Source: Escherichia coli
GTDB taxonomy: Bacteria; Pseudomonadota; Gammaproteobacteria; Enterobacterales; Enterobacteriaceae
NCBI RefSeq assembly: GCF_044647545.1
Contig: NZ_CP172818.1
Direction: 5' to 3' (one strand)
Length of the DNA stretch: 64,000 nucleotides
Numbering within the stretch: the first letter of the stretch is position 1; each line of letters opens with the position of its first letter. The notes below the pieces were generated by a model that saw only the letters and a list, made by a program, of their open reading frames with translations, was not told the origin of the DNA and ran no database searches. Below are positions 8,872-61,264 of the stretch, piece after piece. The position numbers were made by a program, and so were the translations under genes.

Positions 8872-8901
8872 TTAACCATTCCCATACAATTAGTTAACCA
8901 A

Positions 8902-8934
8902 AAAGGGGGGATTTTATCTCCCCTTTAATTTTTC
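8902..8934 (+). terminator. Rho-independent terminator after clpX
   Basis: AAGGGGGGA...TCCCCTT hairpin followed by T-rich tract. Confidence 0.65.
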
Positions 8935-8948
8935 CTCTATTCTCGGCG

Positions 8949-8976
8949 TTGAATGTGGGGGAAACATCCCCATATA
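8949..8976 (+). promoter_or_regulatory. sigma32 heat-shock promoter of lon
   Basis: GTTGAATG (-35 like) ... CCCCATATA (-10 like) with correct spacing; matches sigma32 consensus. Confidence 0.7.
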
Positions 8977-9058
8977 CTGACGTACATGTTAATAGATGGC
9001 GTGAAGCACAGTCGTGTCATCTGATTACCTGGCGGAAATTAAACTAAGAGAGAGCTCT

Positions 9059-11413
9059 ATGAATCCTGAGCGTTCTGAACGCATTGAAATCCCCGTATTG
9101 CCGCTGCGCGATGTGGTGGTTTATCCGCACATGGTCATCCCCTTATTTGTCGGGCGGGAAAAATCTATCCGTTGTCTGGAAGCGGCGATGGACCATGATA
9201 AAAAAATTATGCTGGTCGCGCAGAAAGAAGCTTCAACGGATGAGCCGGGTGTAAACGATCTTTTCACCGTCGGGACCGTGGCCTCTATATTGCAGATGCT
9301 GAAACTGCCTGACGGCACCGTCAAAGTGCTGGTCGAGGGGTTACAGCGCGCGCGTATTTCTGCGCTCTCTGACAATGGCGAACACTTTTCTGCGAAGGCG
9401 GAGTATCTGGAGTCGCCGACCATTGATGAGCGGGAACAGGAAGTGCTGGTGCGTACTGCAATCAGCCAGTTCGAAGGCTACATCAAGCTGAACAAAAAAA
9501 TTCCACCAGAAGTGCTGACGTCGCTGAATAGCATCGACGATCCGGCGCGTCTGGCGGATACCATTGCTGCACATATGCCGCTGAAACTGGCTGACAAACA
9601 GTCCGTTCTGGAGATGTCCGACGTTAACGAACGTCTGGAATATCTGATGGCAATGATGGAATCGGAAATCGATCTGCTGCAGGTTGAGAAACGCATTCGC
9701 AACCGTGTTAAAAAGCAGATGGAGAAATCCCAGCGTGAGTACTATCTGAACGAGCAAATGAAAGCTATTCAGAAAGAACTCGGTGAAATGGACGACGCGC
9801 CGGACGAAAACGAAGCCCTGAAGCGCAAAATCGACGCGGCGAAAATGCCGAAAGAGGCAAAAGAGAAAGCGGAAGCAGAGTTGCAGAAGCTGAAAATGAT
9901 GTCTCCGATGTCGGCAGAAGCGACCGTAGTGCGTGGTTATATCGACTGGATGGTACAGGTACCGTGGAATGCGCGTAGCAAGGTCAAAAAAGACCTGCGT
10001 CAGGCGCAGGAAATCCTTGATACCGACCATTATGGTCTGGAGCGCGTGAAAGATCGCATCCTTGAGTATCTTGCGGTTCAAAGCCGTGTCAACAAAATCA
10101 AGGGACCGATCCTCTGCCTGGTAGGGCCACCGGGGGTAGGTAAAACGTCCCTGGGGCAGTCCATCGCCAAAGCCACCGGGCGTAAATATGTCCGTATGGC
10201 GCTGGGCGGCGTGCGTGATGAAGCGGAAATCCGTGGTCACCGCCGTACTTACATCGGTTCTATGCCGGGTAAACTGATCCAGAAAATGGCGAAAGTGGGC
10301 GTGAAAAACCCGCTGTTCCTGCTCGATGAGATCGACAAAATGTCTTCTGACATGCGAGGCGATCCGGCTTCCGCACTGCTTGAAGTGCTGGATCCAGAGC
10401 AGAACGTAGCGTTCAGCGACCACTACCTGGAAGTGGATTACGACCTTAGCGACGTGATGTTTGTCGCGACGTCGAACTCCATGAACATTCCGGCACCGCT
10501 GCTGGATCGTATGGAAGTGATTCGCCTCTCCGGTTATACCGAAGATGAAAAACTGAACATCGCCAAACGTCACCTGCTGCCGAAGCAGATTGAACGTAAT
10601 GCACTGAAAAAAGGTGAGCTGACCGTCGACGATAGCGCCATTATCGGCATTATTCGTTACTACACCCGTGAGGCGGGCGTGCGTGGTCTGGAGCGTGAAA
10701 TCTCCAAACTGTGTCGCAAAGCGGTTAAGCAGTTACTGCTCGATAAGTCATTAAAACATATCGAAATTAACGGCGATAACCTGCATGACTATCTCGGTGT
10801 TCAGCGTTTCGACTATGGTCGCGCGGATAACGAAAACCGTGTCGGTCAGGTAACTGGTCTGGCGTGGACGGAAGTGGGCGGTGACTTGCTGACCATTGAA
10901 ACCGCGTGCGTTCCGGGTAAAGGCAAACTGACCTATACCGGATCGCTTGGCGAAGTGATGCAGGAGTCCATTCAGGCGGCGTTAACGGTGGTTCGTGCGC
11001 GTGCGGAAAAACTGGGGATCAACCCTGATTTTTATGAAAAACGCGACATCCACGTCCACGTACCGGAAGGTGCGACGCCGAAAGATGGTCCGAGTGCCGG
11101 TATTGCTATGTGCACCGCGCTGGTTTCTTGCCTGACCGGTAACCCGGTTCGTGCCGATGTGGCAATGACCGGTGAGATCACTCTGCGTGGTCAGGTACTG
11201 CCTATCGGTGGTTTGAAAGAAAAACTACTGGCAGCGCATCGCGGCGGGATTAAAACAGTGTTAATTCCGTTCGAAAATAAACGCGATCTGGAAGAGATTC
11301 CTGACAACGTAATTGCCGATCTGGATATTCATCCTGTGAAACGCATTGAGGAAGTTCTGACTCTGGCGCTGCAAAATGAACCGTCTGGCATGCAGGTTGT
11401 GACTGCAAAATAG
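9059..11413 (+). CDS. lon: Lon protease (ATP-dependent serine protease La)
   Basis: 784 aa from [18 protein letters not shown]; Walker A GPPGVGKT; track ORF starts 15 codons upstream. Confidence 0.95.
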
Positions 11414-26630: not shown

Positions 26631-26744
26631 GGGGGCTCTGTTGGTTCTCCCGCAACGCTACTCTGTTTACCAGGTCAGGTCCGGAAGGAAGCAGCCAAGG
26701 CAGATGACGCGTGTGCCGGGATGTAGCTGGCAGGGCCCCCACCC
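26631..26744 (+). ncRNA. ffs: 4.5S RNA (signal recognition particle RNA)
   Basis: 114 nt GGGGGCTCTGTTGGTTCTCCCGCAACGC...GGCAGGGCCCCCACCC matches the E. coli SRP RNA as I recall it; lies in the atl-ybaA intergenic region. Confidence 0.93.
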
Positions 26745-42102: not shown

Positions 42103-44034
42103 ATGAGTTATCAGGTCTTAGCCCGAAAATGGCGCCCACAAACCTTTGCTGACGTCGTCGGCCAGGAACATGTGCTGACCGCACTGGCGAACGGCTTGTC
42201 GTTAGGGCGTATTCATCATGCTTATCTTTTTTCCGGTACCCGTGGCGTCGGAAAAACCTCTATCGCCCGACTGCTGGCGAAGGGGCTAAACTGCGAAACC
42301 GGCATTACCGCGACGCCGTGCGGCGTGTGCGATAACTGTCGTGAAATCGAGCAGGGGCGCTTTGTCGATCTGATTGAAATCGACGCCGCCTCGCGTACCA
42401 AAGTCGAAGATACCCGCGACCTGCTGGATAACGTCCAGTACGCTCCGGCGCGTGGTCGTTTCAAAGTTTATCTCATCGACGAAGTGCATATGCTGTCGCG
42501 TCACAGCTTTAACGCACTGTTAAAAACCCTTGAAGAGCCGCCAGAGCACGTTAAGTTTTTGCTGGCGACGACCGATCCACAGAAATTGCCGGTGACGATT
42601 TTGTCACGCTGTTTGCAATTTCATCTCAAGGCGCTGGATGTCGAGCAAATTCGCCATCAGCTTGAGCACATCCTCAACGAAGAACATATCGCTCACGAGC
42701 CGCGGGCGTTGCAATTACTGGCGCGCGCCGCTGAAGGCAGCCTGCGAGATGCCTTAAGTCTGACCGACCAGGCGATTGCCAGCGGTGACGGCCAGGTTTC
42801 AACCCAGGCGGTCAGTGCGATGCTGGGTACGCTTGACGACGATCAGGCGCTGTCGCTGGTTGAAGCGATGGTCGAGGCCAACGGCGAGCGCGTAATGGCG
42901 CTGATTAATGAAGCCGCTGCCCGTGGTATCGAGTGGGAAGCGTTGCTGGTGGAAATGCTCGGCCTGTTGCATCGTATTGCGATGGTACAACTTTCGCCTG
43001 CTGCACTTGGCAACGACATGGCCGCCATCGAGCTGCGGATGCGTGAACTGGCGCGCACCATACCGCCGACGGATATTCAGCTTTACTATCAGACGCTGTT
43101 GATTGGTCGCAAAGAATTACCGTATGCGCCGGACCGCCGTATGGGCGTTGAGATGACGCTTCTGCGCGCGCTGGCGTTCCATCCACGTATGCCGCTGCCT
43201 GAGCCAGAAGTGCCACGCCAGTCCTTTGCGCCCGTCGCGCCAACGGCAGTAATGACGCCAACCCAGGTGCCGCCGCAACCGCAATCAGCGCCGCAGCAGG
43301 CACCGACTGTACCGCTCCCGGAAACCACCAGCCAGGTGCTGGCGGCGCGCAAGCAGTTGCAGCGCGTGCAGGGAGCAACCAAAGCAAAAAAGAGTGAACC
43401 GGCAGCCGCTACCCGCGCGCGGCCGGTGAATAACGCTGCGCTGGAAAGACTGGCTTCGGTCACCGATCGCGTTCAGGCGCGCCCGGTGCCATCGGCGCTG
43501 GAAAAAGCGCCAGCCAAAAAAGAAGCGTATCGCTGGAAGGCGACCACTCCAGTGATGCAGCAAAAAGAAGTGGTCGCCACGCCGAAGGCGCTGAAAAAAG
43601 CGCTGGAACATGAAAAAACGCCGGAACTGGCGGCGAAGCTGGCGGCAGAAGCCATTGAGCGCGACCCGTGGGCGGCTCAGGTGAGTCAACTTTCGCTACC
43701 AAAACTGGTCGAACAGGTGGCGTTAAATGCCTGGAAAGAGGAGAGCGACAACGCAGTATGTCTGCATTTGCGCTCCTCTCAGCGGCATTTGAACAACCGC
43801 GGCGCACAGCAAAAACTGGCTGAAGCGTTGAGCACGTTAAAAGGTTCAACGGTTGAACTGACTATCGTTGAAGATGATAATCCCGCGGTGCGTACGCCGC
43901 TGGAATGGCGTCAGGCGATATACGAAGAAAAACTTGCGCAGGCGCGCGAGTCCATTATTGCGGATAATAATATTCAGACCCTGCGTCGATTCTTCGATGC
44001 GGAGCTGGATGAAGAAAGTATCCGCCCCATTTGA
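42103..44034 (+). CDS. dnaX: DNA polymerase III subunits tau (full length) and gamma (via -1 frameshift)
   Basis: 643 aa; AAA+ clamp-loader motifs (GTRGVGKTS); the slippery heptamer inside the ORF is listed separately. Confidence 0.97.
   Translation: MSYQVLARKWRPQTFADVVGQEHVLTALANGLSLGRIHHAYLFSGTRGVGKTSIARLLAKGLNCETGITATPCGVCDNCREIEQGRFVDLIEIDAASRTKVEDTRDLLDNVQYAPARGRFKVYLIDEVHMLSRHSFNALLKTLEEPPEHVKFLLATTDPQKLPVTILSRCLQFHLKALDVEQIRHQLEHILNEEHIAHEPRALQLLARAAEGSLRDALSLTDQAIASGDGQVSTQAVSAMLGTLDDDQALSLVEAMVEANGERVMALINEAAARGIEWEALLVEMLGLLHRIAMVQLSPAALGNDMAAIELRMRELARTIPPTDIQLYYQTLLIGRKELPYAPDRRMGVEMTLLRALAFHPRMPLPEPEVPRQSFAPVAPTAVMTPTQVPPQPQSAPQQAPTVPLPETTSQVLAARKQLQRVQGATKAKKSEPAAATRARPVNNAALERLASVTDRVQARPVPSALEKAPAKKEAYRWKATTPVMQQKEVVATPKALKKALEHEKTPELAAKLAAEAIERDPWAAQVSQLSLPKLVEQVALNAWKEESDNAVCLHLRSSQRHLNNRGAQQKLAEALSTLKGSTVELTIVEDDNPAVRTPLEWRQAIYEEKLAQARESIIADNNIQTLRRFFDAELDEESIRPI
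43386..43397 (+). promoter_or_regulatory. dnaX programmed -1 ribosomal frameshift site (A AAA AAG) with -1 frame stop
   Basis: A_AAA_AAG at 43386-43392 in the correct register of the dnaX frame (codons GCA AAA AAG); -1 frame reads AAA AAA GAG TGA; GC-rich structured region immediately downstream. Confidence 0.85.
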
Positions 44035-57135: not shown

Positions 57136-57928
57136 AGCGCAACATCTGCGGCAAATTCCCTTCTCCATACAGGTGTAGTGCACCAACCGCGACCACATAT
57201 CGCCCCGGCGGCATGGCGCGTAATTTGTCCCGCCAGGCGAGATTTCGCTGATGCATCAGCACATCGTACAGCGACTGACTGAACGTATTAGGCAGCGTTA
57301 TTTCATTATTTTGTGGCGGTGTATTCAGCCACCAGCTCATCATTTGTTGCAGCAACCGTGCGTTGGTGTGCCAGTGGGTCAGCGTATCGTCCAGCAGCGC
57401 CAGTCCGTTGTCAGGGAGCTGGAGCAACATGGCAATCTGGTTTTCTGCCCCTTCCAGTTCAATCACGGGTTTATGTTGTTGCTTCGCCGCCTGCAATAGC
57501 TGGTAATCGATACCGTATTCTGCCCGCAGCCCCAGTTTTTGTGCCTGCGTCGCCTGAAGAACCATCGCGATTTGCCACAGCGGTTGGGTAGAAAAGAGTG
57601 AGGTAGAAATGCCCATCTCCTGGCTAATGTGCTGCAGGTTTTGTAATTGCTCCTCGCTAATGCGCTCTTCCAGCGCCTCGCAGGCAGGCAAATTAGCAAA
57701 AGGCGTATCGCTGGTGGAAACATCCGCCTCGACGATCAGCGCATCGGCGTTTTTGAGCTTTTTGAGCAAACGGGTGGGCAGGGGAGCCATATCGTGGCTA
57801 CCCATATGAATACTGCCGAGCAGATGAAAATGGCGATTGCCGGGAAGAGAGATATCGATAGCAGGCCAGGTGTAATGATTACCGCGCAGCGCGGCCCAAA
57901 GCGTTTTTACCCGATACAACAGATCCAT
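57134..57928 (-). CDS. ybaP: TraB/GumN family protein
   Basis: 264 aa ORF recognised as YbaP; its stop codon overlaps the chiX terminator T-tract by 2 nt. Confidence 0.9.
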   Translation of the reverse strand: MDLLYRVKTLWAALRGNHYTWPAIDISLPGNRHFHLLGSIHMGSHDMAPLPTRLLKKLKNADALIVEADVSTSDTPFANLPACEALEERISEEQLQNLQHISQEMGISTSLFSTQPLWQIAMVLQATQAQKLGLRAEYGIDYQLLQAAKQQHKPVIELEGAENQIAMLLQLPDNGLALLDDTLTHWHTNARLLQQMMSWWLNTPPQNNEITLPNTFSQSLYDVLMHQRNLAWRDKLRAMPPGRYVVAVGALHLYGEGNLPQMLR

Positions 57929-58186
57929 ACGACCTCCCTTTGTGAAATATCATGCTAGCGCGCGGGGAGGGATGGCGCAAATGGAGTTGTTGTCGCACTT
58001 GTGCACAGTGCTTGTGTGCATTACAATAATTAAACAATGGACAAGGAGATGAGAATGGAATGGCTCAAAAGAATAATATAAGGAGTTTTCGTGATCCTGC
58101 TGGCTGATTTTTTTTTCCATTCAACCCCACATCAAAAAATCCCTCTAAAATCCATACCACTTATCACAAAAGTGGACATCATTAAT

Positions 58187-58346
58187 CCCCCCCCTTCTCT
58201 CCGTTTTCCCCCCCCCCCGAAACGAAAAAAAAAGTTTTGGAAAAAAAAAGAAATTTCCCCAAAAAAAAAAAAAAAAAAAAAAAAAAATAAAAAAGGGAAA
58301 AAAAAAAAGGAAAAAAAATTTTTTTAAAAAAAAAAAAAAAAAAAAA
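58187..58346. repeat. Homopolymer-rich low-complexity block (C8, C11, A9, A9, A27, A11, A8, T7, A21) upstream of ybaQ
   Basis: Directly visible in the sequence; composition unlike any other part of the window. See findings. Confidence 0.95.
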
Positions 58347-58379
58347 CATAGCTGTCGTATTGACGAGAAAGGTAAAACC

Positions 58380-58751
58380 ATGAAACAGGCAACAAGAAAA
58401 CCGACGACACCCGGAGATATTCTTCTCTATGAATATCTGGAACCGCTCGATTTGAAAATCAATGAGTTAGCAGAGTTACTGCATGTTCATCGTAATAGCG
58501 TCAGTGCACTGATCAATAATAATCGTAAACTCACCACTGAAATGGCATTCCGTCTGGCGAAAGTTTTTGATACCACAGTCGATTTTTGGCTAAACCTCCA
58601 GGCGGCAGTTGATCTTTGGGAAGTTGAAAACAACATGCGTACCCAGGAAGAATTGGGACGGATTGAAACAGTGGCTGAATATTTGGCACGCCGTGAAGAG
58701 CGTGCAAAAAAGGTCGCGTATATGCGCCACCCTAAAGCAGTGCATCCGTAA
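58380..58751 (+). CDS. ybaQ: XRE-family HTH protein, HigA-like putative antitoxin
   Basis: 123 aa ORF with central HTH (LKINELAELLHVHRNSVSALINN); recognised as YbaQ; start taken from the track, and my recollection of the annotated length (113 aa) is not reconciled with this ORF. Confidence 0.85.
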   Translation: MKQATRKPTTPGDILLYEYLEPLDLKINELAELLHVHRNSVSALINNNRKLTTEMAFRLAKVFDTTVDFWLNLQAAVDLWEVENNMRTQEELGRIETVAEYLARREERAKKVAYMRHPKAVHP

Positions 58752-58759
58752 TGATGTAC

Positions 58760-61264
58760 TTATTCCTTCGGTTTAAATCGCAGCAATCGGTTGGCGTTAC
58801 TCACTACGGTAATCGACGAGAGCGCCATTGCCGCTCCGGCAACCACCGGGTTAAGCAGCGTACCGGTGAACGGCCACAAAATACCGGCGGCGACCGGAAT
58901 ACCAATGCTGTTGTAGATAAACGCACCGAGCAGGTTCTGCTTCATATTGCGCAGCGTTGCGCGGGAAATCGCGAGCGCATCTGCAACACCCATCAGGCTA
59001 TGGCGCATCAGGGTAATCGCCGCGGTTTCAATGGCAACATCACTGCCGCCACCCATCGCAATACCGACATCCGCCTGAGCCAGCGCTGGCGCGTCGTTAA
59101 TGCCGTCGCCCACCATTGCCACCTGACGTCCTTCACTTTGCAGACGTTTGATCGCTTCGGCTTTACCGTCCGGTAGCACCCCGGCTATCACCTCATCAAT
59201 CCCTGCTTCTTTGGCGATCGCATTGGCGGTGGTTGGGTTATCCCCGGTTAGCATCACCAGACGATATCCCGCTTTATGCAGGCGTTGCAGCGCCGCCACG
59301 CTATCACTACGCAACGGATCGCGTACAGCCAGCAGGGCTACCGCTTTCCCGTCAACCGCCAGCAGCACAGGCGTTGCCCCTTGCGATGCCTGAGCTGAAA
59401 TATCTGCCTCAATCGCTTTAGTATCAACTTGCTGGTCATTTAACAGCGCCTGATTACCCAGCAATAACGCATGACCTTCAGCTTCACCGCTCACGCCCAG
59501 CCCGCGCAATGTGCGGAAACCGTTGACCTGCGGCAGCTGCATATCACCTGCTTTATCGAGGATCGCTCGTGCCAGCGGATGGCTGGAACCTTGCTCCAGT
59601 GCCGCCGCCAGACGCAATGCCTGCGCTTCATCAACATCAGCAAACGTTTTCACTGCGACAACCTGCGGCTTCCCTTCGGTCAGCGTCCCGGTTTTATCGA
59701 ACACGACGGTGTCGAGCGTACTGGCGCGTTGCAGCGCGTCAGCGTCCCGCACCAGCACGCCAAACTCAGCCGCCCGCCCGACGCCCGAAATAATCGACAT
59801 CGGCGTCGCCAGTCCCAGCGCACACGGACAGGCAATAATCAGCACCGTGGTGGCAATCACCAGGGTATAGACAATTTGCGGTGCCGGACCAAAGAAATAC
59901 CAGATTGCCGCACTGACAAGCGCAATAACCACTACTACCGGCACAAATACGGCTGAGATTTTATCCGCCAGTTGACCGATTTCTGGCTTGCTGCTCTGGG
60001 CCTGTCGCACCATGCGAATGATCCGTGACAGCGTAGTATGGCTGCCGACCGCACTGGCGCGAAACAGCACACTGCCGTCCTGTACCACTGTCCCGGCATG
60101 GACGCTATCGCCTTCGCCTTTTTGCTGCGGGATTGGTTCGCCCGTCAGCATCGCTTCATCCAGCCACGCTTCGCCCTGGGTAATTTCACCATCTACCGGC
60201 ACCCGATCACCCGTCGTCAGGCGCAGCAACATACCTGGCTGAACATCTGCCAGCGGCACGTTTTTTTCACCTTCGTTGGTGACCAGGCGCGCCGTCGGTG
60301 GGGTTAAATCGAGTAATTTCTCCAGCGCCTTAGAAGAACGCTGACGTGCGCGCGCTTCCAGCATATGACCGAGATTAATCAGACCGATAATCATCGCACT
60401 GGCTTCATAGTAAAGATGTCGCGCTTCCATCGGGAACCACTGCGGCCACAGGTTGACGCTCATTGAATAGAGCCACGCCACGCCCGTACCCAGCGCCACC
60501 AGCGTATCCATCGTCGCTGCACCGTTCAGCAGGCTTTTCCATGCGCTGCGGTAAAAATGGCCGCCGGCGAAAACCATTACCGCCAGGGTTATCAGGCCGA
60601 TAACCAACCACAGGCTGCGGTTGTCGGCGGTGACCATCATGTTATCGCCGATCATCCCCCAGACCATCACCGGGATACCCACCGCCAGTGCGACAATCGC
60701 CTGCCAGCGGAAGCGCTTCATCGTAGCGACGGCGGTTTCTTGCTGGCGCTCGCGGCGTTTAGCGTCATCTTCAATCGCTTCCGCGCCGTAGCCCGCTTTT
60801 TCCACCGCCTGCACTAAATCTTGTGGGGAGGCACTGCCCATCACCAGCGCAGTACGCTCCGCCAGGTTTACCCGTGCCTGAGTGACGCCCGGTACGCTTT
60901 GCAACGCATTTTGTACGCGGGTGACACAGCTGGCGCAGCTCATGCCGCTCAGCAGCAACTGCTGGCTGTCATCGTCATCGGCGGTCGCTGCCGGAAGCGC
61001 CTCAGAAACCGCTGTCAGTGCTTCCGACGGGATTGATGACTCCGCCAGCGGTTTAGCCTTTGGGTGGCTTACAGATGCGTCATAACCCGCTTGTTTGATG
61101 GTTTCGATCAGCTGTTCTGCACTGGCAGTCCCGGTAACGTGCGCTTCAGTGACAGACACATCCGCCTGCTCAACATCCGGGCGCTGTTCGAGACTTTCTT
61201 TCACGCGTTTAACGCAGTGACCGCAGGACAGGCCGTCCAGGGTCAGGTCGATAGTTTGTGACAT
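58760..61264 (-). CDS. copA: Cu(I)-exporting P1B-type ATPase
   Basis: 834 aa; two N-terminal CxxC metal-binding domains (GLSCGHC, GMSCASC), CPC in TM6, DKTGT phosphorylation motif. Confidence 0.97.
61057..61063 (-). promoter_or_regulatory. Candidate copA programmed -1 frameshift heptamer (C CCA AAG) yielding the CopA(Z) chaperone
   Basis: Minus-strand CCCAAAG at codons His-Pro-Lys (HPKAKPL), about codon 69-70, directly after the first metal-binding domain; placement follows the published CopA(Z) frameshift as I recall it. Confidence 0.6.

Follow-up and report, generated by a model that had tools for sequence, protein, structure and literature searches.

The canonical programmed -1 frameshift site of dnaX in an Escherichia coli genome

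[quoted passage not shown] The tau/gamma frameshift has been known since 1990. The question raised by the locus described here is whether the dnaX copy of one more E. coli strain carries the recoding signal in full, and by which route its shorter product would be made. The DNA analysed, referred to as the window, is a stretch of 64,000 nucleotides from contig NZ_CP172818.1. An earlier note, written from the letters of the window, had proposed the classic tau/gamma recoding site at 43386-43397. That proposal is borne out: the segment 43367-43431 is almost certainly the canonical programmed -1 ribosomal frameshift site of E. coli dnaX. Its parts, and the gene that holds them, are as follows.

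42103..44034, + strand: dnaX coding sequence in the zero frame, giving tau of 643 aa and 71.11 kDa (from ORF translation, RefSeq identity, Pfam and PDB)
42103..43397, + strand: predicted reading path of gamma, in the zero frame to AAG (codon 430, ending at 43392), then a -1 shift, GAG at 43392-43394 and UGA
43367..43431, + strand: full cis-acting recoding element, the DnaX ribosomal frameshifting element RF00382 (from cmscan and the RefSeq feature)
43370..43375, + strand: AGGGAG, the Shine-Dalgarno (SD)-like upstream stimulator, read from the sequence, with a 10-nt spacer (43376-43385) before the heptamer
43386..43392, + strand: slippery heptamer A_AAA_AAG, made of the third base of codon 428 and codons 429 and 430 (register computed)
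43395..43397, + strand: UGA, the -1 frame stop that ends gamma (translation in the -1 frame from 43386 gives K K E stop)
43398..43427, + strand: downstream stimulatory stem-loop, GC-rich, 11 bp, beginning 5 nt after the heptamer (Rfam consensus structure and minimum free energy, MFE, fold)

The host gene is E. coli dnaX. The ORF list has one long frame alone across 43386-43397, on the plus strand from an ATG at 42103, and its translation starts MSYQVLARKWRPQTF. The ORF is 100% identical to the RefSeq dnaX of several complete genomes, including the ST648, MS6198 and FDAARGOS_497 records, and the matched copy bears the label 'dnaX: DNA polymerase III subunit gamma/tau'. The neighbours in FDAARGOS_497 are, in order, mscK, rsmS, priC, ybaN, apt, dnaX, ybaB, recR and htpG. 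A megablast search with the ORF over 5,426 complete E. coli genomes places dnaX once in each of 5,424, and the whole gene is 95-99% identical in 5,366 of the 5,424. Pfam finds the delta2/AAA module, the lid and gamma3 (domain III) within residues 20-358 of the product, followed by tau_4 (domain IV, 418-498) and tau_5 (domain V, 500-640). Domain IV is the DnaB-binding and domain V the alpha-binding part of tau. Among PDB chains, 8gj0_B is the 643-aa tau, and 8giy_B is a chain of 431 aa that matches dnaX residues 1-430.

The letters from 43366 to 43431 read ...GTGC AGGGAG CAACCAAAGC AAAAAAG AGTGA ACCGGCAGCCGCTACCCGCGCGCGGCCGGT GAAT..., in which 43386-43397 is AAAAAAGAGTGA. The zero frame crosses the site as GCA (43384-86), AAA (43387-89), AAG (43390-92), AGU, GAA; 43386, where the heptamer begins, is thus a third codon position, which sets the register as A_AAA_AAG, as the earlier note had stated. 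No other X_XXY_YYZ heptamer in dnaX lies in register. The site falls at codons 428-430 of 643. After a -1 shift the reading is AAA AAA GAG UGA, and the predicted gamma has 431 aa, a computed mass of 47.54 kDa and the C-terminus ...GATKAKKE, in agreement with the product of roughly 47 kDa ending in Lys-Lys-Glu that had been anticipated. The codon string had also been given correctly in the earlier note, but its placing of the UGA 'two codons later' needs amending: one sense codon (GAG) separates the slipped lysine codons from the stop, and the literature says 'one codon later' (PMC5009743).

By itself AAAAAAG is no evidence, being common: the window holds 26 copies against 14.9 expected, and four of the 26 sit in a low-complexity artefact (the 58228-58309 cluster described below). 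The weight is therefore carried by the composite motif and by the covariance model. Two other copies within dnaX, at 43516-43522 and 43594-43600 (+), both downstream of the frameshift site, were considered as additional sites and rejected. They begin at codon position 1 (AAA AAA G), which is not the -1 slippery register.

A known cassette for -1 frameshifting joins A_AAA_AAG to an SD-like sequence upstream and a stem-loop downstream (PMC6771820, PMC5389563), and both stimulators are found here. The earlier note had advised looking for the upstream one; it is AGGGAG, 10 nt from the heptamer, for which a stimulatory role has been described (PMC5389563, PMC5009743). When both strands were scanned for AGGGAG-N(6-14)-AAAAAAG, this was the single occurrence in the window. 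AGGGAG is able to pair with 3'-UUCCUC-5' in the tail of 16S rRNA, one of the pairs being G-U.

The GC-rich structured region expected after the heptamer is a stem-loop with a lower helix (43398-43403 with 43422-43427) and an upper helix (43405-43409 with 43415-43417 and 43419-43420). A43404 and G43421 face each other unpaired, and there is a bulge at C43418 and a UACCC loop. Folding of the 40 nt that follow the heptamer, the second check advised, gives an MFE of -19.7 kcal/mol, and the pairing is that of the RF00382 consensus structure. Taken alone, the fold beats GC-matched shuffles only modestly (z = -2.35; 5 of 200 shuffles fold equally well), and independent evidence was therefore sought.

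Such evidence comes from the relatives of E. coli. One genome per species (GTDB) was scanned with the pattern AGGGAG-N10-AAAAAAGAGTGA, the stem being left unconstrained, and about 70 Enterobacterales loci were returned, from Citrobacter, Enterobacter, Kluyvera, Pluralibacter, Kosakonia, Pantoea, Erwinia, Mixta, Serratia, Buttiauxella and other genera. From these, 40 distinct sequences were aligned and scored against the E. coli/Rfam structure; as the orthologues were picked by an exact SD-like element, heptamer and UGA, the alignment bears on the stem and not on the conservation of those three parts. Standard pairs fill 85.9% of the stem cells, compared with 28-53% in slid controls, in which the 3' partners are moved by 1-3 columns. 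Five stem pairs have changes on both sides, and the covariation score is reached by none of 500 shuffles. The closing pair is A-U in 23 of the 40 sequences and G-C in 15, and Mixta has exchanged G-C for A-U at pair 33-54, inside the lower helix. The stem is, as judged from this alignment, preserved by compensatory changes across 40 distinct Enterobacterales orthologues. RNAalifold, applied to the same alignment, recovers the lower helix and not the upper one, because the register of the upper helix varies between genera.

Synonymous diversity points in the same direction. Across 58 distinct full-length dnaX genes aligned by codon, whose nucleotide identity to the window is 69-95%, the stem codons 433-442 have a mean synonymous entropy of 0.475; this stretch leaves out the codons forced to be invariant by the search pattern. 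The 605 other 10-codon windows of dnaX have a mean of 1.07 and a minimum of 0.58, so that none is as low as the stem. The synonymous diversity being lowest at the stem codons, selection therefore acts on the RNA, and not on the protein alone.

The element is also recognized as a whole. With cmscan of the entire window against Rfam 15, RF00382 scores 96.8 bits, where the gathering score is 35 (E = 5.8e-20), and all 65 positions of the model are matched. Base for base the 65 nt are identical to the RF00382 consensus save at one position, which the model treats as variable. RefSeq marks a 'DnaX frameshifting element' as a sequence_feature in genomes with the identical gene, and the feature annotated in FDAARGOS_497 corresponds exactly to 43367-43431 of the window. 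The 65-nt element lies in the band of at least 99% identity, which over this length means identical, in 5,372 of 5,423 complete E. coli genomes (about 99%). It is identical in J53, a K-12 derivative, and K-12-derived genomes show no difference from it anywhere within the element; host gene, register, -1 stop, SD spacing of 10 nt and stem-loop are all the same.

The published biochemistry was done on the K-12 sequence (PMC5009743, PMC6771820, PMC5389563). A sequence identical to the element shifts about 50% of the time in vivo, a figure that rises to as much as about 80% in vitro, and in K-12, which has the identical element, gamma is made about 1:1 with tau (PMC5009743, PMC5389563). In vitro, changing A_AAA_AAG to the synonymous G_AAG_AAG lowered the shift to 2%, and a published efficiency of about 84% falls to 50% when the SD-like element is mutated (AGGGAG to AUAUCA) and to 20% when the stem is deleted (PMC5389563). 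The main route is one in which both tRNA-Lys slip during hindered translocation (PMC6771820). The single tRNA-Lys of E. coli (mnm5s2UUU) reads AAA as well as AAG, which makes AAG prone to shift (PMC5009743). A search for tRNA genes in the 64-kb window found none. Because the element is identical to that of K-12, we infer that frameshifting proceeds in this strain as in K-12, and no sequence evidence was found against the canonical reading.

The events at the site may be pictured as follows. A ribosome on dnaX that arrives at A_AAA_AAG would have the two lysine codons in its P and A sites. The 11-bp stem-loop, 5 nt downstream, would then stand at the mRNA entrance and hinder EF-G-driven translocation, while AGGGAG, 10 nt upstream, would still be base-paired to the 16S rRNA 3' terminus. 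With translocation stalled, the two tRNA-Lys would slip back by one base and re-pair with AAA AAA. Shifted ribosomes would read one glutamate codon (GAG) and meet UGA, yielding a gamma of 431 aa and 47.5 kDa that would be without the DnaB-binding and alpha-binding domains IV and V of tau. Ribosomes that do not shift would go on to make tau, of 643 aa and 71.1 kDa.

It could be argued that the heptamer is merely a chance pair of lysine codons with no recoding, and that tau is the sole product. AAAAAAG is indeed frequent: the window has 26 copies, and dnaX carries two others besides the one in question. Among the dnaX copies, however, only the one at 43386 is in the slippery register, and it comes with both stimulators at canonical spacing and with a -1 stop. 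It also lies within the 96.8-bit RF00382 match, in a region with reduced synonymous variation and with a stem that covaries between genera, and the identical sequence is the one that shifts about half the time in vivo and up to some 80% in vitro (PMC5009743, PMC5389563). The combined architecture, together with the Rfam score and the signal from evolution, excludes a chance heptamer, and we give it next to no probability. Nor is gamma at all likely to arise because RNA polymerase slips on the A-run, which is the mechanism in the dnaX of Thermus thermophilus. An A-run is present at the site, and some bacteria do make gamma in this way (PMC5009743), but the run has six consecutive A only (43386-43391), and about nine A or T are needed (PMC5009743). 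Moreover, a conserved SD-like element and stem-loop are directed at the ribosome and would be superfluous for a slipping polymerase. The chance that transcriptional slippage accounts for gamma here appears negligible. A proteolytic origin, in the style of Caulobacter, was rejected as unnecessary with the recoding cassette intact.

If the shift is ribosomal, there is still more than one way of making it. In vitro, dnaX mRNA has been shown to shift by slippage of one tRNA, instead of two during translocation (PMC6771820). [quoted passage not shown] The conservation of the stem-loop argues that selection works on the translocation route, and the one-tRNA route is correspondingly a poor candidate, very unlikely to be the one that operates here. 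A further idea is that the gamma:tau ratio is tuned by the charging or modification of tRNA-Lys or by ribosome collisions, and that remodelled upper helices set ratios specific to a lineage. We consider this improbable to much the same degree; the window holds no pointers to physiological or lineage tuning of gamma:tau, and the element is identical to that of K-12. The canonical reading, with two-tRNA slippage during translocation, is therefore kept. Public records already annotate the feature, which was known before and does not depart from the published system. Its importance is for annotation only, and its confirmation here brings no new biology.

The same outcome, tau and a shorter gamma from one gene, is reached in Thermus thermophilus and in Caulobacter by different means: transcriptional slippage in the former and proteolysis in the latter (PMC5009743). 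Compared with Thermus, the dnaX of the window has no A9 run and does have ribosome-directed stimulators. Among other Enterobacterales (Enterobacter, Pantoea, Erwinia, Serratia, Buttiauxella, Mixta) the core AGGGAG-N10-A_AAA_AAG-AGUGA is the same, having been selected by the search, and so is the lower helix, whose CCGGC/GCCGG is nearly invariant among Enterobacterales dnaX loci. The differences lie higher up and at the base of the stem. Escherichia, Citrobacter and Kosakonia have GCCGC-UACCC-GCG(C)GC as upper helix and loop, in contrast to GCGC-loop-GCGC, with loops of 4-8 nt, in Enterobacter, Serratia, Buttiauxella, Pantoea and Erwinia; the closing pair, A-U in E. coli, is G-C in the 15 sequences mentioned above. 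In Candidatus Pantoea persica (L052) the 3' arm is apparently absent from its usual place.

The pattern also occurs in a quite different setting. About 45 Collinsella loci (L002, L003, L012 and L034 among them, the last at 9769-9796 on the minus strand) match AGGGAG-N10-A_AAA_AAG-AGUGA exactly. The match falls right at the 5' end of an rpoD-like gene that follows dnaG; its heptamer is in slippery register, and 65 nt are identical in many Collinsella genomes. The AGGGAG is most simply the ribosome binding site (RBS) of a GTG 5 nt downstream, and the RNA that follows folds no better than shuffles (z = +0.44). With AGGGAG placed as an ordinary RBS and no downstream structure, these loci were rejected as dnaX-like recoding sites and left out of the 40-sequence alignment.

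Other features of the window are listed next.

61058-61064, - strand: copA -1 frameshift site C_CCA_AAG, within copA (58760..61264, -), in slippery register at offset 200 from the ATG
8892-8987, - strand: sraA sRNA, above the Rfam gathering score, between clpX and lon
26639-26735, + strand: ffs (4.5S/SRP RNA), above the Rfam gathering score
57052-57135, + strand: sroB sRNA, above the Rfam gathering score, between ybaK and ybaP

The copA site is the published recoding site for the CopA(Z) copper chaperone (Meydan et al. 2017, cited in PMC7558416). Its -1 frame reads CCC AAA GGC UAA. As in dnaX, a -1 shift truncates the protein at a nearby -1 stop. The heptamers differ (C_CCA_AAG in copA, A_AAA_AAG in dnaX), and so do the stimulators, the literature giving a downstream pseudoknot for copA (Meydan et al. 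2017, cited in PMC7558416), in place of the simple stem-loop and SD-like element of dnaX. The MFE fold of the 73 nt downstream of the copA heptamer is unremarkable (z = -1.28), the published stimulator being that pseudoknot. Together, dnaX and copA bring the programmed -1 frameshift sites of the window to two.

At 58096-58346 (+), a gene for a RelE/ParE (HigB-like) toxin upstream of ybaQ/higA decays progressively into runs of A, C and T, and has flanks identical to E. coli FDAARGOS_497. This degraded version is absent from the complete RefSeq E. coli genomes, the best match over 57700-58900 being 91.8-93.2%. The stretch looks like a sequencing or assembly artefact, probably of low-quality read sequence, and it is the source of the spurious AAAAAAG cluster at 58228-58309. 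Nearby, at about 58744-58760 (+), some 19 nt (GAATAATTTCCCTATAACG) at the ybaQ/higA stop codon are missing relative to FDAARGOS_497. The ybaQ ORF runs here from 58380 to 58751 and has 123 aa, compared with 113 aa as annotated; 9 nt separate its end from the stop of copA, which lies on the opposite strand.

The three small RNA genes, sraA, ffs and sroB, are all at the positions expected for E. coli. The ffs gene is offset by 2 nt from the FDAARGOS_497 projection, and there are therefore small indels relative to FDAARGOS_497 upstream of dnaX.
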